Shown here piece by piece: positions 5,369 to 15,317 of a stretch of 24,000 bases of DNA; positions within the stretch are counted from its first letter, which is position 1, and the number at the start of each line of letters is the position of its first letter. The position numbers and the translations under genes were made by a program. The stretch covers positions 34,068 to 58,067 of the forward strand of contig NZ_SBEF01000008.1 in assembly GCF_004011885.1 (NCBI RefSeq), read 5' to 3'. The notes under the pieces are model-generated. The model had not been told where the DNA came from. It worked only from the letters and a program-made list of their open reading frames with translations, and did no database searches. The DNA comes from Serratia microhaemolytica (GTDB lineage Bacteria; Pseudomonadota; Gammaproteobacteria; Enterobacterales; Enterobacteriaceae).

Positions 5369-7161
5369 TCAACCCTGATATCTCTGCAATCACTGAACGG
5401 ATCCGCCAGCGCAGCCAGCAGCGGCGTCAGGCTTTTCTTGCCCGCATCCAGCAACAAGCCGAGCAAGGGAAAACCCGTGCAACATTGGCCTGTGGTAATC
5501 TGGCTCATGCCGTTGCTGCCTGTAGCAGTGACGACAAGCGGCGCATCCTTGATATGACGCGCGCCAATGTCGCGATTGTTACCGCCTACAACGATATGCT
5601 CAGCGCCCATCAGCCCTACCAACATTATCCAGATCAAATCAAACAGGCGTTAAGTGAACTCGGGCATAGCGCACAGGTAGCCGGTGGTGTACCGGCAATG
5701 TGTGATGGCATCACCCAGGGACAACCCGGCATGGATATGTCGTTGTTCTCACGTGATTTGATTGCACAAGCAACCGCAGTTTCGCTCTCGCACAACACCT
5801 TTGATGCCACGCTGCTGCTCGGTGTCTGCGACAAAATCGCACCAGGGCAGATTATGGGGGCACTCTCCCATGCTCACTTGCCCACTGCATTTGTGCCGGT
5901 AGGCCCAATGAGCAGCGGTATCAGTAATGATGAAAAGGTCAAAGTACGCCAAGGTTACTCAGCGGGCAAATTAGGGCGCGATGCACTACTGGAGATGGAG
6001 TGTAACGCCTACCACGCACCTGGCACCTGCACCTTCTACGGCACTGCCAACACCAATCAATTGGTGTTTGAAGCGATGGGTCTGATGTTACCAGGCTCAG
6101 CTTTTGTCGCGCCAGACAGCGAACTGCGCCAAGCGCTAAACGCAGAGGCCGCTCGCCGCATCAGTGCGATGATCCCCGGTGCCCCAGCCTACCGCCCTTT
6201 AAGTAGCGTGTTAGATGAGCGCTCACTGGTCAACGGCCTGGTTGCGCTGCTCGCCTCTGGCGGGAGTACTAATCACAGCATTCACATGGTGGCAGTAGCG
6301 AAAATGGCTGGTTTACTAATAACTTGGGATGACATTAACGACCTCTCAGAGGTCGTACCGCTACTGGTGCGCATGTACCCCAACGGTTCCGCCGATGTTA
6401 ACGCCTTCGAACAGGCTGGTAGCGTTCCTGGATTGATGCGCCGTTTGGCTGAACAGCAGTTGATCCACATGGATGCACTGCCGGTCTTTGGTAGCATGGC
6501 GGATTATCTGACTCGACCAACGCTACAACAGGGAAAACTAATATGGCAAGCGGTAGGTGAGAGCCAAGATCCAAGCGTACTGGCGACCAGCGGTCAATAC
6601 TTTCAAGCTACCGGCGGCACTCGCCTACTGACAGGTAATCTTGGCCGTGCGGTGGTCAAAGTTTCTGCTGTTGCCACGGAATACCGCACCATTGAAGCGC
6701 CAGCACGCATCTTTTCCTGCCAACATGCAGTCGAAGCGGCTTATCAAGCTGGAGAGCTTAATCAGGATGTGGTGATTGTCGTGCGTCACAATGGTCCGGC
6801 TGCGAACGGAATGCCTGAACTACATAAGCTGATGCCAATATTGGGCAACTTGCAAAATGCTGGTCACCGGGTCGCACTGGTCACCGATGGGCGTCTCTCT
6901 GGGGCATCCGGCAAGATCCTGGCAGCCATTCATGTCACACCGGAAGCACTGCATGGCGGCACCATTGGACTGCTACAAGATGGCGACCTACTGCGTATCG
7001 ATGCAGAAACAGGAAGTATCGATTGCCTGAGTAATTTGAGTGGTCGTGCGCAGGCTGACATCGATCTCACGCAACAACAGCAGAGTTGGGGACGTGAACT
7101 GTTTAATGTGATGCGCCGAACCATCTCCAGCGCTGAGTGTGGTGCCACTATTTTTGATTAA
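5365..7161 (+). CDS. edd: Phosphogluconate dehydratase (Entner-Doudoroff)
   Basis: 598 aa with LACGNLAHAVAAC, YNDMLSAHQPY, GGVPAMCDGITQGQPGM, GVCDKIAPG, APGTCTFYGTANTNQ, GGSTNHSIH and TDGRLSGASGK, matching E. coli Edd throughout. The start overlaps the gntK stop (ATGA). Confidence 0.95.
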   Translation: MINPDISAITERIRQRSQQRRQAFLARIQQQAEQGKTRATLACGNLAHAVAACSSDDKRRILDMTRANVAIVTAYNDMLSAHQPYQHYPDQIKQALSELGHSAQVAGGVPAMCDGITQGQPGMDMSLFSRDLIAQATAVSLSHNTFDATLLLGVCDKIAPGQIMGALSHAHLPTAFVPVGPMSSGISNDEKVKVRQGYSAGKLGRDALLEMECNAYHAPGTCTFYGTANTNQLVFEAMGLMLPGSAFVAPDSELRQALNAEAARRISAMIPGAPAYRPLSSVLDERSLVNGLVALLASGGSTNHSIHMVAVAKMAGLLITWDDINDLSEVVPLLVRMYPNGSADVNAFEQAGSVPGLMRRLAEQQLIHMDALPVFGSMADYLTRPTLQQGKLIWQAVGESQDPSVLATSGQYFQATGGTRLLTGNLGRAVVKVSAVATEYRTIEAPARIFSCQHAVEAAYQAGELNQDVVIVVRHNGPAANGMPELHKLMPILGNLQNAGHRVALVTDGRLSGASGKILAAIHVTPEALHGGTIGLLQDGDLLRIDAETGSIDCLSNLSGRAQADIDLTQQQQSWGRELFNVMRRTISSAECGATIFD

Positions 7162-7417: not shown

Positions 7418-7493
7418 GCCCGGATAGCTCAGTCGGTAGAGCAGGGGATTGAAAATCCCCGTGTCCTTGGTTCGATTCCGAGTCCGGGCACCA
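7418..7493 (+). tRNA. pheV: tRNA-Phe (anticodon GAA at 7451-7453), encoded CCA
   Basis: The 76-nt sequence GCCCGGATAGCTCAGTCGGTAGAGCAGGGGATTGAAAATCCCCGTGTCCTTGGTTCGATTCCGAGTCCGGGCACCA is identical to E. coli tRNA-Phe as I remember it. The pheV versus pheU symbol is arbitrary. Confidence 0.97.
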
Positions 7494-7760: not shown

Positions 7761-8744
7761 TTATCTCTTTTTATCGGTATAAATCGCCAATTCCGATTCT
7801 AATGTCTTCCCGACGATTTTCATATCTAACTCTACATACTCCATTGTGGTGCTGACACAACAGTGTCCCAGCAGATTTTTCACCAGTTGCAAATTACGAT
7901 CGGGCGACTTCATTAAATCTGTGGCCAAGGTATGGCGAAAACGATGTGGTGACACCTCAAAACCACACATCTTGGAAAGTCGATTGAAAAATGAACGTAC
8001 TTTCTGCCGAGCATGTTCAACATCCCACTCGACTTGCTGATTGAGCACCACGCGATCGACATCAAACAGAAAGTCATTGGCCGTCGCTCCGACAGATTCA
8101 GCCTGTGCCATCAATCGCTGCAAACGTGATTTTAGTACCGTCACAATCGGCACTCGCCATTCTCGGCGAGTTTTACTCCCTTCCAGACACAGATCCAAGT
8201 ACCCTTCAAGGAGATTCACATCACGTAAACGGATATGCAAAAGTTGATTAAATCGTATACCGGTGTAACGCAACATATCAAGCACTGTCAGCCAATACCA
8301 AGCTGGATAAAGGGCATTACGTCCGCCGCGTTGTCCCTGACCTTTGCCTTCCGCCTCTTCACATTGCTCCATCAACAGATAAATTTTGAGCATCTGTGTT
8401 CGCGTCAAGGTTTTCTTTTTCTTTTTGTCACGTGGAACATTGCATTGGTTAAAGGGATTTTTACCCGCAGGCAATAACTCATGCTCCAGCGCATGGTTAT
8501 ATAGCGCCCGCAGGTGTGCCATTTTATTGTTCCATGTCTGCGATGATCGTTTCTTATCATTCAGCAGATGACGCCGCCAGCGCAACACTTGTTGATGGCT
8601 GATCCGTGCCGGTGGCACACCTTCATCCAGATAGTCAACAAACCCCTTAACGACTTTACGGTAGCTCTGCTCTGAAATAGCTTTAAGTCGGCGCGCGAGA
8701 AAATATTCTTCCAAGAGTTCATCCCAAGTGATTTCATTGCACAT
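7761..8744 (-). CDS. int: Tyrosine-type site-specific integrase of the ICE
   Basis: 327 aa. It has an N-terminal SAM-like core-binding region and a C-terminal catalytic region (YTGIRFNQLLHIRLRD ... HRFRHTLATDLM ... LLGHCCVSTTMEYV, i.e. R, HxxR, H, Y). SD ggagaagg is present. It lies adjacent to the tRNA-Phe att region. Confidence 0.88.
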   Translation of the reverse strand: MCNEITWDELLEEYFLARRLKAISEQSYRKVVKGFVDYLDEGVPPARISHQQVLRWRRHLLNDKKRSSQTWNNKMAHLRALYNHALEHELLPAGKNPFNQCNVPRDKKKKKTLTRTQMLKIYLLMEQCEEAEGKGQGQRGGRNALYPAWYWLTVLDMLRYTGIRFNQLLHIRLRDVNLLEGYLDLCLEGSKTRREWRVPIVTVLKSRLQRLMAQAESVGATANDFLFDVDRVVLNQQVEWDVEHARQKVRSFFNRLSKMCGFEVSPHRFRHTLATDLMKSPDRNLQLVKNLLGHCCVSTTMEYVELDMKIVGKTLESELAIYTDKKR

Positions 8745-8757
8745 ATGACCTTCTCCG

Positions 8758-10092
8758 TTATCCTTGTGAAAAGAAAAGATGCTGACTGTCCGCTTGAACA
8801 GTAATGCCTCTCAAGCGGGCAACCTTAATAAGATAACCATTAACTTTGTTAAACTTCATCTTTTTTTCATCAGGTTGGGATAAGTTCGCTGGAGTAAAAC
8901 GTTCTCCTTTTCGTGTACGGTGCAGTTGTAATTTTTCAAAAGCAGACTGGATCTTCTCTCGTTTGTGCTGACATCCACTTTCTTTAATAAATAGATAAAA
9001 AATATCTGGCACCAACAGGTACACGAAACCGGCAATAAAATGCACGCGTGACGCAGGTTCATTCGCGCTAATCGTACCAGTCGACAAACCATGAATCAGC
9101 CAAGTTAGGAACTGTTCCCCGAGTGACCGCACAGGTACTATTTCCGTGTCTCCATAATCCTCCAACGGTACAGGTGATAGTTTTGTGGGTTCATCTGGCA
9201 GCATGACAGGGATCGGTGTGTCCTCAGCAATCTCACTTTGTGATGGCATCACATCAGGCTGAATAGGTGCTACATTGGGCACTGTCTGCGCTGTTGATGG
9301 CAGTAATGTGACGATATCGAACTCATGCGAAGGCACAAGAGGTTCAATCGTTGTGGCGGGTTGGTTCATGGCCAACGGTGAAGCAACACGTTCTGCCGAC
9401 TGTTGCAGTAATGACCTGATTAATGGCATGGCTGGCTTGCTATTCCACAATGCGCCAGCAAGATTACTCAAGGCTGCCGGATTGCCTGCTAACCAACGGA
9501 TCCCCGCTATGGGCATCAACTGATTGGCGATCACCGCAGCCAACGCCGAAATGTCCTTAGCAGCCAGCGAAGATGGACGAAACCGGAAGCGATAAGGCCC
9601 AGCAGGCACAGTGATCCCCGGTTGCCAGATATTTCCCGTACTCTCCTCACCCTCCAGGTGAGTTAATAAGGGCAGATGGTAAAACAGGGCAGCCCAGAAA
9701 ATGACCGCTTGCCACATCACGCCTTGTGATGCCTGATCTTCTGGTGTGGCACCGGGTGGGAACATATAGCCTTTCGACAGCCTAACGGCATTGGCAGTAA
9801 AGCGTAGCGTTAAATCACCAAATCCACCGGTGTATGCCCAGTCACCACAGATAGCAGCAGGAACATGCTGCACATATTCCAGTAACTGGGTGATGGGCAT
9901 CAGATACAGGCTCTGATACAGCTCACTGGGCAGTGAACTGCTCTCCTTAATCTTTAGCAGGCAATCTTGGCGTAATGCGCTGGTCAGCAAGCTATCTACG
10001 GATTCAGGGGCATAGTACCCCTCGTGCGTTGGTGCTAACGAGGTATCACGCAGCGCTGTACGTAATAACAATGTTTTGATTTTACTGAGCAT
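8758..10092 (-). CDS. traI: ICE relaxase/putative helicase, TraI_2 family (PFGI-1 class, MOBH-like)
   Basis: 444 aa. The N-terminal pattern (...LLEYVQHVPAA...GGFGDLTLRFTANAVRL...VIFWAALFYHLP) and the C-terminal block (FLTWLIHGL..ISANEPASRVHFIAGFVYLLVPDIFYLF...IQSAFEKLQLH) resemble the Pfam TraI_2 / TraI_2_C proteins of PAPI-1/ICEclc-type elements. This is recognised from memory only. It stops 13 nt before int. Confidence 0.65.
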   Translation of the reverse strand: MLSKIKTLLLRTALRDTSLAPTHEGYYAPESVDSLLTSALRQDCLLKIKESSSLPSELYQSLYLMPITQLLEYVQHVPAAICGDWAYTGGFGDLTLRFTANAVRLSKGYMFPPGATPEDQASQGVMWQAVIFWAALFYHLPLLTHLEGEESTGNIWQPGITVPAGPYRFRFRPSSLAAKDISALAAVIANQLMPIAGIRWLAGNPAALSNLAGALWNSKPAMPLIRSLLQQSAERVASPLAMNQPATTIEPLVPSHEFDIVTLLPSTAQTVPNVAPIQPDVMPSQSEIAEDTPIPVMLPDEPTKLSPVPLEDYGDTEIVPVRSLGEQFLTWLIHGLSTGTISANEPASRVHFIAGFVYLLVPDIFYLFIKESGCQHKREKIQSAFEKLQLHRTRKGERFTPANLSQPDEKKMKFNKVNGYLIKVARLRGITVQADSQHLFFSQG

Positions 10093-10789: not shown

Positions 10790-10903
10790 ATTCAGACAGA
10801 TATCCCCCTCTTTCGAAGGGGATGAGGTTATTCCAAGGTGAATGACTACTTGTAATGTCAAGCGTTCTGGCACCATTGAGACATAGTTAACATCCTCTCT
10901 TTA

Positions 10904-10943
10904 AGAAAAAAAGAGGGCCTTGTCCCATGAGGAACAAGGCCCC
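10904..10943 (-). terminator. Intrinsic terminator of the antirestriction-radC transcription unit
   Basis: On the minus strand gggccttgt-tcctcatggg-acaaggccc (9 bp) is followed by tcTTTTTTTctt, 75 nt past the radC-like stop. Confidence 0.7.
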
Positions 10944-11017
10944 ATGGGGAGATAACAGGGGTTATAACTGCTGCTATCCAACAGTAAATGGTGATGAGAT
11001 CACATTGGGTAAAAACA

Positions 11018-11470
11018 CTACAATAAGCCTTGATCAGCAAAGGAGACTATTTGCCCATGACCAATCACCATATGATCCAGCACAGGGACATCTATCAATG
11101 ACAGTGCTTGCTTTAACCTATCAGTGACCTGCCTGTCTGCTTGGCTGGGTTCTGCCACACCTGAAGGGTGGTTATGGGCAAAAATGACAGCGCCTGCATT
11201 GTAAAACAGCACCTGTTTGACGATTTCTCGCGGATAAACATTGACTGAATTCAATGTGCCAGTGAATACCGTTTCACCGGCAATCAAACGATGTTGGTTG
11301 TCTAGATACATCACAAAAAAGATTTCGCGCTCTAGCCCTTCCAGATGTAAACGCAGGTAGCGACGCACCGTACCAGAATGAGTGAACTGGATCTCACATG
11401 TTTGTAGTCGGCTCTCCAACAAACTGATTGCCTGTGTGATGATTTTCTGTTCATGATCTTGATAATACAT
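11018..11470 (-). CDS. radC: RadC-like JAB/JAMM domain protein (DUF2466)
   Basis: 150 aa with the JAMM motif AVIFAHNHPSGVAEPSQADRQVT and C-terminal LDHMVIG. Typical island RadC/YeeS/YfjY-like protein. Confidence 0.9.
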   Translation of the reverse strand: MYYQDHEQKIITQAISLLESRLQTCEIQFTHSGTVRRYLRLHLEGLEREIFFVMYLDNQHRLIAGETVFTGTLNSVNVYPREIVKQVLFYNAGAVIFAHNHPSGVAEPSQADRQVTDRLKQALSLIDVPVLDHMVIGHGQIVSFADQGLL

Positions 11471-11494
11471 GGTATTTTCCCGTCATAAAAAGGG

Positions 11495-11534
11495 GGGAAT
11501 ACCCTGCCTTTGGCGGGACGTATTCCCGCAAAGG
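11495..11534 (-). promoter_or_regulatory. 5'-leader two-helix RNA motif, copy 3 (upstream of radC-like gene)
   Basis: On the minus strand H1 is CCUUUGCGGGA-AUACG-UCCCGC(C)AAAGG and H2 is GGGAAUAC/GUAUUCCC, followed by CCCUUUUUA. The motif ends 25 nt before ATG 11470. Confidence 0.55.
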
Positions 11535-11589
11535 TTAATGAATTCATCTGCCTCACCGGTAACGGCTTCAGGCATGAATAAACGTGATG

Positions 11590-12057
11590 CTAATCAATTG
11601 CACCGGCAATGGCAAAACTCTCGCGAACGTCAAATGAGTAATCACGAAGCCAGTGATAACATTCGGTGAAGTACTCGTCCTCTTGGTTCTTATCGTGCGC
11701 CAGCTCAGCTAATGCACACAATGCAAACAGTGAAACCGTTATCCCTAATGCCTGAGCGCTCATCTCACCTTGGTAATAATTGGATTGCACGCTGATCCGA
11801 TAGGTCTTTTCAGTCTTAGGACAGATAAAAAAACCTCCATTTGAAAGCGTGTACCAATCCCAACTATCAATCAGGTAATCATCACAGAATTGTCGAGCAA
11901 AACGGAAGCAGAGGTCATTGAAGACAAATAAATTATACTCAATGTTCTGTCTACCCTGTTGCCTCATCGTGACGGACTGTTTGTAACAGCCCAGTGCCAG
12001 AGACTCCTCCCGAAATGCTTGGATGCCGGTTATATTAACTTCAATGGATTGTGTCAT
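11590..12057 (-). CDS. Antirestriction protein, ArdB/KlcA (Pfam Antirestrict) family
   Basis: 155 aa. WDWYTLSNGGFFICP...YQGEMSAQALGITVSLFALCALAE...YHWLRDY...AIAGAID is collinear with E. coli YfjX/YafX/KlcA-type proteins. Confidence 0.85.
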   Translation of the reverse strand: MTQSIEVNITGIQAFREESLALGCYKQSVTMRQQGRQNIEYNLFVFNDLCFRFARQFCDDYLIDSWDWYTLSNGGFFICPKTEKTYRISVQSNYYQGEMSAQALGITVSLFALCALAELAHDKNQEDEYFTECYHWLRDYSFDVRESFAIAGAID

Positions 12058-12077
12058 GGTCGATCCTCAAAACATGC

Positions 12078-12110
12078 AGGATCTGCCCTTTGCGGAGAGA
12101 TCCCGCAAAG
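12078..12110 (-). promoter_or_regulatory. 5'-leader two-helix RNA motif, copy 2 (upstream of antirestriction gene)
   Basis: On the minus strand H1 is CUUUGCGG-GAUCUCU-CCGCAAAG and H2 is GGGAUCU/AGAUCCU (one G.U pair), followed by GCAUGUUUU. The motif ends 21 nt before ATG 12057. Confidence 0.55.
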
Positions 12111-12144
12111 TGTGGGTAAAATGGCAGTATTCAAATAACTTGAC

Positions 12145-12513
12145 TTAGATGTGACGATAAGACCACACAAGTTTTTTAGCTAAAAAACACGCTTCAATGT
12201 AGGCACTGTTGATATCACACCGAATAGAGTCATCAATCGCACAATATTGATAGTGATAATCGCCAGAGGCAGTGAAATAGCGACATAAAATAGTGAATTG
12301 GCAATAACCCTCAATTAAGTTATCAACAATCACGCGACAGCCAAAACTTCCTGACTTGCTCTCCATCCATTTACTTTCAATCACTTGGTACATTTCACGT
12401 TCTGCTTGCTTAATTTTTTTCGGCAAAACATGACGTAAAAATGAAGCGGCGTATTTGAAAAAAGGAACAGTCTGGATCTCAAATCCAACACGGATCTCAG
12501 TTGCTATTTGCAT
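12145..12513 (-). CDS. Hypothetical protein (122 aa), first gene of the antirestriction-radC unit
   Basis: ORF taken from M11 of the track ORF (MQIATEIRVGFEIQ...) because SD ggag lies 7 nt upstream of ATG 12513. No family recognised. Confidence 0.6.
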   Translation of the reverse strand: MQIATEIRVGFEIQTVPFFKYAASFLRHVLPKKIKQAEREMYQVIESKWMESKSGSFGCRVIVDNLIEGYCQFTILCRYFTASGDYHYQYCAIDDSIRCDINSAYIEACFLAKKLVWSYRHI

Positions 12514-12532
12514 GGTGTACTCCAATAAAAAA

Positions 12533-12574
12533 GGGAACACCATGCCCCTGATGGGATGGATGCTCCCTTCAGGG
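12533..12574 (-). promoter_or_regulatory. 5'-leader two-helix RNA motif, copy 1 (upstream of the 122-aa ORF)
   Basis: On the minus strand H1 is CCCUGAAGGGA-GCAUCCA-UCCCAUCAGGG (one A-A mismatch) and H2 is GGGAGCAUC/GGUGUUCCC (two G.U pairs), followed by UUUUUUA. The motif ends 20 nt before ATG 12513. Confidence 0.55.
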
Positions 12575-12627
12575 TGAGTTTAGATTGGATGCCCAGCGCG
12601 TTAGCACTGAAGACATGGCGGTAGATT

Positions 12628-12813
12628 CAAGAAACCTTCATCGTCGCGTCATAGTGCGCGGGTATTGACGATATCTGCTTCCAAAGGTGTGCAGATGTAC
12701 CACATTTGCATGTTCTCCCTTGCAGGCTACGGGAGTGTTGTTGTGCCGCCACCCGAAGGCGTTCCTCACAGGCGACAGGAACATTGGTGGTTGCTCGAAA
12801 GCAACGGATAAGC
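12628..12813. repeat. Structured ~185-nt element, copy A (candidate ncRNA or ssDNA element; strand unresolved)
   Basis: Aligns end to end with 15136-15317. Five helices are conserved, two with compensatory changes. No conserved reading frame. Confidence 0.7.
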
Positions 12814-12891
12814 CTGAACATTCTTGAATGACTTTTCGTAAATGTCAAGACGATACTCTTTTTGGGGTTCCTGGCTCCAATCAAACCATAC

Positions 12892-12920
12892 TTGACGTGA
12901 AAAGTCAGGCACTCTATCAT
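12892..12920 (+). promoter_or_regulatory. parDE promoter (-35 TTGACG, 17 nt, -10 TATCAT)
   Basis: ttgacg-tgaaaagtcaggcactc-tatcat, 29 nt upstream of the parD ATG. A TGAC-N7-GTCA dyad overlaps the -35. Confidence 0.6.
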
Positions 12921-13567: not shown

Positions 13568-14455
13568 TTATTCATCGCCCTGACGAAAATAAACCTGTTT
13601 GACATATCGGCCTCTGCCATCACCATGCCCTAAATCCATAGAGACCAATGCGCCTGCTTCTTCACGGCTCATACCCATTTTAATATGATGATCCACTGCA
13701 TCGCGTGCATAAGCATAACGTAAACTGTGTGGCGAATATTTGCCGTTTAAACCGGCTTCACGCACGACATTTCTATACCGATCAATGGCAGTATGTAGTG
13801 AAGACCGATTAATCAGCTTGCCGTCATTTTCATTACAGTACGTTATTGCACGAGCAAGTAGAGACAATACTTTATCACGTTCAAAAATCGTTGTTTCACG
13901 AGGACGCCCCCCTTTAGTGCCAAATACCACACGCACCCGTTCATGACCCTTTTGTAATTCAGCCTGCCACGTCTTAAGCGATTTTGCTGATTGCACCGCT
14001 TCTTCTGTTCTTAAACCAATATAGCGAGAGAGTTCAATCGCCAATGCAACACCAGGATCTTTCTCTAAAACCAATTTAATCACTTCATGCAACTTCTCAT
14101 CAGGGATAGGTCGTTTAGTGCCATCTCGGCTGGCGCCCGCAATCCCCAATGCCCTATTACTCAGTTGTTCATGATGAGAATCAGATAGCTTATTTCTGCC
14201 TGCCACCGACAAGATGGCGCGCAGCGCTGCCATTTCATTTTGCAGTGTACGCAGCGATATATTTTCCACCTTTCGACTATTAATGTAATTTTCAATATGC
14301 TTAATCTTGATGTGTTTTACATCTTTGATTTGAATATTGAGCTTTGCCAGGCGCTCAGAAAATCGGTCAGCAATTTTCGAACGATCCGCCACAGTTTTAA
14401 AGCTCCCACCCGCCTGACGAGCGAATGTTACAAGTTGCTTGCTCAGTTTAGACAT
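13568..14455 (-). CDS. Second tyrosine recombinase (small phage-integrase-family protein, Integrase_1-like)
   Basis: 295 aa with IGLRTEEAV (Arg), SPHSLRYAYA (HxxR) and DLGHGDGRGRYVKQVY (His, Tyr). SD ggaga is present. The subfamily name is from memory only. Confidence 0.75.
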   Translation of the reverse strand: MSKLSKQLVTFARQAGGSFKTVADRSKIADRFSERLAKLNIQIKDVKHIKIKHIENYINSRKVENISLRTLQNEMAALRAILSVAGRNKLSDSHHEQLSNRALGIAGASRDGTKRPIPDEKLHEVIKLVLEKDPGVALAIELSRYIGLRTEEAVQSAKSLKTWQAELQKGHERVRVVFGTKGGRPRETTIFERDKVLSLLARAITYCNENDGKLINRSSLHTAIDRYRNVVREAGLNGKYSPHSLRYAYARDAVDHHIKMGMSREEAGALVSMDLGHGDGRGRYVKQVYFRQGDE

Positions 14456-14809
14456 ATCGATATCTCCAATGGCTCACCCAACCGTCAACAAAATAATTTC
14501 ATCTCCGACGACACGGTTATTCTTGCGCTTCCTGCGTCTCAACGGGTACCTGTGCATCGGAGCGGCGAAATGTTGAGTTATTGCAAGGCTCCCCAGGTCT
14601 CTGACCTGTTTGCTGCTAATGCAGAGCTGACATTCGTCAAGCTGCCTCCGACACTACTTTCGCAGTGTCGCCATCGATACCGAGTTGATTGATTTCCTCC
14701 TTATAAATGGAACGGTTAGACGGTTTACCGTCATCGTTACGTTGATGTTGAAAGTCAATCCCAGTTACCACAGTGACTACGTGTGTGTCAGAGGGTACTG
14801 GAATGGTGA

Positions 14810-15135: not shown

Positions 15136-15317
15136 CAAGAACCTTCATCGTCGCGTCATAGTGCGCTTGTATTGACGACATCTGCTTTCAAAGGTGAGCA
15201 GATTTACCCATTTGCATGGACTCTCTTGCAGGTAACGAGAGCTCATGTAGCCACCCGAAGGCGTTCCTCACAGGCTACTAGGAACATTGGTGGTCGTCGT
15301 TTGACGACAGATAAAGC
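15136..15317. repeat. Structured ~185-nt element, copy B
   Basis: Homologous to 12628-12813 (see copy A). Flanking sequence is unrelated. Confidence 0.7.

Follow-up and report, generated by a model that had tools for sequence, protein, structure and literature searches.

A short RNA leader repeated before antirestriction-type genes of an integrative conjugative element: conserved hairpins, a ribosome site paired in the predicted fold and a possible two-state switch

We analysed a 24,000-nucleotide stretch of Serratia microhaemolytica (contig NZ_SBEF01000008.1, positions 34,068 to 58,067; hereafter the window), which holds the tRNA-proximal end of an integrative conjugative element (ICE). In this element, a leader of about 70 nt precedes each of three neighbouring genes, namely a gene of 122 aa (the first gene), an antirestriction gene and a radC-like gene. 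Each leader folds on the gene strand into two adjacent hairpins, H1 and H3, the second of which pairs the Shine-Dalgarno (SD) region, and each holds a segment, X', that is complementary to two places: to X, that is, the GGGA atop the H1 5' arm together with the H1 loop, and to the stretch just before the start codon. On this basis we propose, with moderate confidence, that the leader is a two-state cis-regulatory element in an operon of antirestriction-type genes, whose products probably serve an anti-defence or establishment role.

Three leaders with one architecture

A reading made from the sequence only had described, in the three leaders, a helix H1, a helix H2 formed by X and X', a U-rich run and a nearly constant spacing to the ATG. 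All of these are present on the minus strand, and the distance from the 3' end of H2 to the ATG is 24, 20 and 19 nt for the radC, antirestriction and first-gene copies, respectively. The intergenic gaps in the window measure about 83-119 nt, of which the leader occupies 65-74 nt. When raw leaders were aligned with MAFFT and folded with RNAalifold, inconsistent registers and just 8 pairs were obtained, so iterative covariance models were used instead. Model R1 was built on the H1+H3 structure from four Serratia and Morganella leaders lying outside the window. With it, each of the three window copies was matched, on the gene strand (E = 2e-4, 0.022 and 0.029 in 107 kb). The refined model, R2, whose training alignment held the radC copy and neither the antirestriction nor the first-gene copy, gave exactly three good matches in the window with filters off, at 43.9, 32.6 and 25.5 bits; everything else, including all scores on the opposite strand, stood at or below 18.2 bits. 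The earlier proposal of one shared RNA architecture on the gene strand was borne out. The leaders and their two main helices are as follows.

11468..11541, minus strand: leader copy 1, ending at the radC ATG (11470-11468); R2 43.9 bits, E = 9e-11; R1 25.7 bits
11534-11507, minus strand: H1 of copy 1, CCUUUGCGGGA/AUACG/UCCCGCCAAAGG, 3' arm UCCCGC[C]AAAGG; part of the minimum-energy fold
11471..11503, minus strand: H3 of copy 1, GGUAUU..CCC with GGG..AAUACC, covering the SD-like GGGA and positions -1 to -6; 9 X':SD pairs
12055..12119, minus strand: leader copy 2, ending at the antirestriction ATG (12057-12055); R2 25.5 bits, E = 2e-5
12110-12088, minus strand: H1 of copy 2, CUUUGCGG/GAUCUCU/CCGCAAAG
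12058..12087, minus strand: H3 of copy 2, GG..GAUCCU.CA with UG.AGGAUC..CC, the SD GAGGA being paired; 10 X':SD pairs
12511..12581, minus strand: leader copy 3, ending at ATG 12513-12511 of the 122-aa gene; R2 32.6 bits, E = 2e-7
12574-12546, minus strand: H1 of copy 3, CCCUGAAGGGA/GCAUCCA/UCCCAUCAGGG
12511..12544, minus strand: H3 of copy 3, CAUGGUGU.CCC with GG.G.ACACCAUG, covering GGAG and the start codon

H3, the best-supported helix, was missing from the sequence-only reading, as was the position of a STAXI or radC RNA immediately upstream of the leader (see below). RNAfold placed H3 directly 3' of H1 in all three copies, X' pairing with the SD region up to position -1; in the first-gene copy the pairing also takes in the AUG itself. 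The minimum-energy fold is H1+H3 in each of the three window copies, with the U-run as the loop of H3 in the full-length fold, and folding z-scores against dinucleotide shuffles were -3.3, -3.8 and -3.0 for copies 1, 2 and 3. Beyond the window, H3 belonged to the full-length minimum-energy fold in 18 of 20 representatives. Hence, as in SD-sequestering operators, the SD or the start codon is paired in a stable fold whose pairs covary.

In total, R2 returned 52 matches from the window and 14 related loci, of which 43 were distinct and fell into 18 sequence types. Nearly all terminate at an ATG, and all lie on the gene strand except one. This lone minus-strand match (27.3 bits, at 6006-6061 of locus L004) is weak and doubtful, and it was left out wherever 42 distinct copies are counted below. 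Across the 43 distinct copies, aligned to the model, 92.9% of the H1+H3 cells were paired as compared with 71.8% in shuffles. Covariation in homologous leaders, which it had been suggested earlier to check, was found: 21 of the 23 H1+H3 pairs change on both sides, with 11 of 12 in H1 alone and 10 of 11 in H3, where 91-97% of the cells are paired. The covariation score of H1+H3 was 0.557 against 0.198 for shuffled alignments (0/500 shuffles reached 0.557), and it dropped to 0.131 or less on sliding the partners.

An alignment-free comparison was made with one representative for each of the 18 types, pairing each strand with its own partner or with the partners of other types. H1, H2 and H3 were each type-specific, at a somewhat optimistic permutation p<=2e-4. 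Mean energies for own versus other partners were -17.3 versus -10.9 kcal/mol for H1, -14.3 versus -9.8 kcal/mol for H2 (longest run, 8.6 versus 6.4 pairs) and -10.5 versus -6.0 kcal/mol for H3. A column-based count for H2 was weaker and pointed in the same direction, two registers coexisting with 69% and 72% of cells paired at slides 0 and +1. Sequence differs widely between copies whose pairs are nonetheless preserved, and a start codon marks the end of nearly all of them, which does not fit repetitive extragenic palindromes or miniature mobile elements.

Hairpin T and the favoured mechanism

When the RNA is cut just before the U-run, the X:X' pairing extends through the H1 3' arm, which folds back, and a single hairpin, T, results. 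The corresponding features of the window are these.

11495..11527, minus strand: H2/T of copy 1, X GGGAAUAC (11527-11520) with X' GUAUUCCC (11502-11495)
11491-11485, minus strand: U-tract of copy 1, 3' of T/H2 (U5)
12104-12098 with 12084-12078, minus strand: H2 of copy 2, GGGAUCU with AGAUCCU
12076..12106, minus strand: T/H2 of copy 2, GCGGGAUCU (12106-12098) with AGAUCCUGC (12084-12076), one G.U
12072-12069, minus strand: U-run of copy 2, UUUU, weak
12533..12567, minus strand: H2/T of copy 3, GGGAGCAUC (12567-12559) with GGUGUUCCC (12541-12533), two G.U
12532-12524, minus strand: U-tract of copy 3, UUUUUUAUU (U6AUU), no gap after T/H2

T ends 0-4 unpaired nt before the U-tract, and at least 5 U are found within the next 8 nt in 15 of 20 representatives. 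In 10 of the 20, including the first-gene and antirestriction copies, T is the minimum-energy fold of the cut RNA. For copy 2, it is better than H1 alone by 7.1 kcal/mol; for copy 3, it reaches -20.2 versus -17.8 kcal/mol, with zero unpaired nt before the U-tract; and for the radC copy, the two are nearly equal (T -15.8, H1 -16.0 kcal/mol). Of the features of an intrinsic terminator, namely a stable G+C-rich hairpin and, 0-2 nt behind it, a U-rich tract, the fullest set is seen in copy 3, where the stem runs without a gap into U6AUU, while copy 1 has U5 after a suboptimal T and copy 2 only U4. For sequence type A, the stem of T counts 15 bp and is capped by a GCAA loop, with U6 coming next. 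A simple terminator scanner misses T, the interior of which exceeds the scanner's 8-nt loop limit.

T and H1 share the GGGA, the loop and the 3' arm and are therefore mutually exclusive. Both are conserved, H1 by covariation and H2/T by copy-specific complementarity, as is found in antiterminator/terminator pairs. For the overlap of H1 and H2, two options had initially been offered, a compact H-type pseudoknot and an exclusive, terminator-like arrangement; it is the second that is favoured, with T as the best fold in two of the three cut window copies.

The model that we favour runs as follows. X', made of a variable part b followed by UCCC, would be one strand with two competing partners. By pairing with X, it would form hairpin T, which ends at the U-tract like a terminator and leaves the ribosome site free; since T and H1 share nucleotides and exclude each other, H1 would act as an antiterminator. 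By pairing with the SD region up to position -1 or the AUG, X' would instead form H3, so that ribosome binding would be blocked and H1 would re-form. The full-length leader would settle into H1+H3, that is, with translation off. Because T and H1 are close in energy, this would amount to a double lock, in which the transcript either stops at the U-tract or goes on with its ribosome site masked, unless X' were kept occupied by something or the polymerase ignored T. What the calculations establish is the family, where and on which strand it lies, the covariation in H1 and H3, the own-copy complementarity of H2/T and the folding energies; termination, translational masking and what flips the switch are inferred.

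As both outcomes look repressive, an activating input is needed. No input such as a leader peptide, a protein, a tRNA or a ligand was identified, and neither a conserved small open reading frame (ORF) nor a conserved unpaired core was found in the leaders. A factor that binds H1 or X' is one candidate; others are a kinetic window open to the first ribosome and a terminator-resistant state of transcription set by the STAXI or radC RNA.

Several points weigh against this model. Both end states look 'off', and the activating input that it postulates was not found; nor does the leader contain conserved unpaired nucleotides able to bind a ligand. T is not the minimum-energy fold in 10 of the 20 representatives, the radC copy of the window being one of these, and the antirestriction copy has just four U after T. 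The U-rich stretch could be the mere loop of H3 or a site for ribosomal protein S1. Minimum-energy folding also ignores co-transcriptional kinetics. Finally, the H1/H3 counts rest on an alignment fitted to the model, and the permutation p-values are optimistic, as the 18 types are partly related.

A first alternative is in fact a refinement of the favoured mechanism, in that it names the trigger: an RNA-binding factor of the ICE or of the host would sit on H1, as BglG/LicT does on the RAT hairpin, or on X', and would pick T, H3 or an open state. In its favour, the top of H1 hardly varies (GGG:CCC in 40-41 of 43 distinct copies) in a stem that otherwise covaries, T and H1 have almost equal energies, as a gated switch would lead one to expect, and several small proteins without a Pfam family are encoded in these clusters. 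Against this, no candidate factor was found, and use in three helices already accounts for the invariance of GGGA/UCCC. A single trans-acting RNA could not pair with all types, since the loops and b differ between them. Such a gate has, in our view, a small chance of being the right account.

Alternatively, there might be no switch at all. The hairpins would then be leaky intergenic terminators, or would stabilise the mRNA, beside an ordinary structured ribosome-binding site, and would fix the expression ratios within the operon. The presence of T and a U-tract between consecutive genes, the failure to find a sensor and the canonical terminator that closes the unit at 10914-10943 all speak for it. 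However, a fixed terminator has no need of a competing H1, yet H1 covaries at 11 of its 12 pairs, and the complementarity of X' to X as well as to the SD region is type-specific. Moreover, the element is anchored to the start codon and not to the upstream stop codon, the distance from stop to H1 varying from about 19 to 55 nt. We consider this explanation improbable.

The pseudoknot, in which H1 and H2 would coexist as a structural or translational signal, fares worse. In most types, the H1 loop could indeed pair with the segment that lies 3' of H1. But H2 takes the GGGA that is already paired in H1, and once the GGGA is excluded the loop:b pairing is weak (mean -1.4 kcal/mol). In addition, a linker of 0-4 nt between the 9-12-bp H1 and X' would, from known geometry, be too short to cross the H1 groove. 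We hold a pseudoknot to be very unlikely.

Relation to the STAXI and radC RNAs

The radC RNA (RF01754) and STAXI RNA (RF01728) motifs were described by Weinberg et al. 2010 (PMC2864571), and our literature searches on their function gave nothing beyond that paper (PMC2864571). The Rfam models located three known RNAs, and a putative promoter was noted just 5' of the STAXI RNA nearest to the leaders.

12672..12806, minus strand: STAXI RNA (RF01728), 86.1 bits against a gathering score of 40.5; 90 nt upstream of leader copy 3
12820-12848, minus strand: sigma-70-like promoter TTGACA-17-AAGAAT, just 5' of this STAXI RNA
14540-14688, minus strand: EFASI RNA, upstream of the Integrase_1-domain gene
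15161-15309, minus strand: second STAXI RNA, upstream of the Integrase_1-domain gene

In five Serratia/Yersinia loci (L001, L002, L004, L005 and L006), a STAXI RNA is likewise followed by a leader, with a gap of about 35 nt or less. The order STAXI-EFASI-integrase-STAXI also recurs in L001, L002, L004 and L006. The site at 12820-12848 is probably the operon promoter. A promoter-like site at this spot 5' of STAXI is kept in five Serratia/Yersinia loci (TTGTCG-17-TACGAT), which suggests that STAXI is the 5' end of an mRNA transcribed from double-stranded DNA.

This bears on the possibility that the hairpins act, while the element is transferred by conjugation, in single-stranded DNA rather than in RNA and serve there as a priming site or a single-strand promoter. 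The ICE setting would be in keeping with it, as would the adjacent STAXI, whose possible action in single-stranded DNA was once considered (PMC2864571), and in the radC copy the antisense strand folds at least as well as the sense strand. Yet almost all copies run up to a start codon and have the SD paired, the sigma-70-like promoter 5' of STAXI is a conserved double-stranded one, and the pairs themselves point to RNA on the gene strand, as the sequence-only reading had argued from G.U pairs in two H2 copies. Indeed, the longest H2 run holds none in the radC copy, one in the antirestriction copy and two in the first-gene copy. H1+H3 contain 54 G.U against 25 A.C. Of 42 distinct copies, 22 have a longer H2 on the gene strand than on the complementary one, and 4 have a shorter one; in the window, the H2 run counts 10 pairs versus 6 in copy 2 and 11 versus 6 in copy 3. 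A role in single-stranded DNA thus appears most improbable.

Membership of the leaders in the radC or STAXI family, which had been raised as a possibility, did not survive. With Rfam models at gathering scores, under which STAXI and EFASI were matched, nothing was obtained on the three leaders, and no Rfam 15 family matches them. The radC and STAXI models gave no match on the leaders even at E<=10 with a 96-nt query. For the radC model, no match was found anywhere in the window at its 40-bit gathering score, nor at E<=10 on 10900-12900 or 11465-11560. As a positive control, the same model scored 79.5-123.7 bits on the radC RNAs of a Ralstonia ICE (L016) and an Enterobacter plasmid (L017). The structures differ as well. 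The published consensus of radC RNA is about 149 nt long, with four stem regions and a pseudoknot, and the leaders do not fit it; STAXI is a pseudoknot unit repeated two or three times, whereas the leader is a single unit of two hairpins. The leaders do share with radC RNA a location in the 5' untranslated region of DNA-acting genes, as RadC, PF03230, ArdC, N6-methylase and DUF1281 are encoded downstream, and radC, antirestriction, methylase and integrase genes are the context reported for both motifs. Gene context alone does not make them radC RNA members, and in L016 and L017 the radC RNA and the leader are separate, adjacent matches. That the three leaders are divergent members of either family is hardly tenable.

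The two kinds of RNA are nonetheless neighbours. They occur in the same ICE gene neighbourhoods, and the leader follows STAXI or radC RNA within about 10-90 nt; STAXI and radC RNAs are much larger (153 and 149 model positions), while the leader goes unmatched by both models and also occurs alone before downstream genes. In L016 and L017, a leader ending at an annotated start follows 2 of 6 radC RNAs after 10-28 nt (L016 15997-16232; L017 15569-15833). A third radC RNA (L017 12010-12152) is followed after 3 nt by a weak leader match only, of 13.1 bits (span 12010-12228). More leaders stand alone before later genes of these two loci. The published radC alignment halts just before the leader module, and in one of its sequences the flank between motif and ATG folds as H1+H3.

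Phage put RNA and EAR RNA make the transcription complex resistant to termination. By analogy, we tentatively raise the idea, to which we attach a low probability, that the leader is the common output module of STAXI and radC RNAs and works as a per-gene AND gate for properly initiated transcripts. STAXI or radC RNA, present once at the operon 5' end, would make the transcription complex termination-resistant or would sense a signal. Only modified complexes would pass T; T would then persist, X' would be kept off the ribosome site and the gene would be translated. Stray or unmodified transcription would halt at T, or would proceed with H1 formed, H3 then masking the ribosome site. The leader offers a first concrete handle on STAXI and radC RNAs: because it directly follows each of them, their effect could be read on a defined downstream switch.

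Gene setting, spread and known systems

The remaining features of the window are given in order of position.

7418-7490: tRNA gene
7761-8744, minus strand: tyrosine integrase gene
8758-10092, minus strand: TraI_2 relaxase gene
Listed after the TraI_2 relaxase gene, minus strand: ORF of 168 aa without a Pfam family
10914-10943, minus strand: canonical intrinsic terminator after radC, a 13-bp stem followed by CTTTTTTT
11018-11470, minus strand: RadC-like JAB gene (Pfam, E = 4e-44)
11590-12057, minus strand: antirestriction gene, PF03230 (Pfam, E = 4e-23)
12145-12513, minus strand: first leader gene, 122 aa, no Pfam family
13568-14455, minus strand: Integrase_1-domain gene, without a short leader of its own
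Farther along the window, minus strand: resolvase, TraG_N and TraU genes

One correction concerns the start of the first gene. It most likely begins at ATG 12513, which has a GGAG (12523-12520) 7 nt before it and at which the leader model also places the start; the ATG at 12543 given in the ORF list is in frame and is located within X' of copy 3. The terminator at 10914-10943 is probably the 3' end of the three-gene unit. With a promoter 5' of STAXI and this terminator 3' of radC, the unit seems to run from a promoter through STAXI and three leader-gene pairs to a terminator.

In the protein database, only ten relatives of the antirestriction protein were found, at 42-60% identity over the aligned part. 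A scan of genomes and metagenomes with the alignment of these relatives yielded the 14 related loci, mainly ICEs of Serratia, Yersinia and Morganella; metagenomes gave only two. In these loci, the genes behind the leaders encode ArdC, antirestriction protein, RadC, DUF1281, N6-methylase and small proteins without a Pfam family. Additional copies, which end no more than 3 nt from annotated starts, were found in ICEs of Ralstonia, Enterobacter and Klebsiella and in Salmonella SGI-4. A near match was found in none of 5,426 E. coli genomes, and the antirestriction/radC-like region of CP4-57 in E. coli K-12, where the genes are just 8 nt apart, has no leader.

The kind of element to which the leader would belong is already known, from attenuators and SD-masking hairpins. 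As in BglG/LicT RAT-terminator and trp-type attenuators, exclusive hairpins share a strand, the downstream one abuts a U-tract, and the whole lies in the 5' leader of the gene that would be regulated. Unlike these, the leader comes without a leader peptide, a known binding protein or a ligand-binding domain, the 3' strand of its terminator-like hairpin doubles as the anti-SD of a third helix, and the unit is repeated before each gene of the operon. Like SD-sequestering operators and riboswitch platforms, it has a hairpin that pairs the SD up to the start codon and an alternative pairing that would free both. It differs from them in having, over some 72 nt, no conserved unpaired core and in occurring with or without a large upstream RNA (STAXI, radC).

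In the repZ/repA leaders of IncI-alpha/IncB plasmids, translation is activated when an upstream hairpin loop base-pairs with the 5' side of the hairpin that masks the SD; these leaders rely on a true long-range pseudoknot, together with a leader peptide and an antisense RNA. Here too an upstream loop is complementary to the 5' arm of an SD-hiding hairpin, on a conjugative element; however, about 10-15 nt separate the partners, which overlap H1 and end at a U-tract. In the MS2 maturation gene (delayed folding) and in IS10 transposase mRNA (fold-back), too, the ribosome site is hidden in the equilibrium fold. In those systems, as would be the case for the leader, only a transient or alternative conformer can be translated, but the leader involves no long-distance interaction, and promoter scans found no promoter inside it. 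Literature searches gave no description of these leaders. What appears to be new is the use of a terminator 3' strand as anti-SD, the placing of the unit before each gene and its consistent position behind a STAXI or radC RNA.

ICEs of the family with TraI_2 relaxase, TraG_N and TraU disseminate genes for resistance, metal tolerance and virulence. Behind the leaders stand genes (ArdC, antirestriction protein, RadC, orphan methylase) of a type that assists incoming DNA in withstanding host defences. A conserved per-gene unit able to stop transcription and to mask the ribosome site would, if true, explain how such genes are silenced and then released.

Control of the CsrA type was discarded, the GGA being located in stems and not in loops, and so was an RNA thermometer, the SD being paired with CCC and not with U. 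A weakly conserved box resembling UUGACA/ACUCA stands 5' of H1 (11534-11541, 12111-12119 and 12575-12581; alignment columns 1-8). It was considered as a fourth partner of b and rejected (own-copy run 2.8 versus 3.4 with other copies, p~1), and also as the -35 element of an intra-leader promoter, for which no -10 lies at the right spacing, the promoter scans being empty.

The Salmonella and Klebsiella copies are found in pSGI4 (Salmonella Genomic Island 4; L019 4731-9298) and in a plasmid-borne ICE of Klebsiella michiganensis (L018 7227-12288), where the leaders precede DUF1281, N6-methylase and several hypothetical genes in a cluster that includes ArdC. The terminator at 10914-10943 weakly resembles the leader model (18 bits) and scores 19 bits with the Rfam suhB/mmgR family, under the threshold of that family. 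Lastly, a weak sigma-70-like site, TTGCCA-17-TAGCAT, lies at 11587-11615 on the minus strand, at the end of the antirestriction gene and upstream of the radC leader, and from its sequence it may be an internal promoter.

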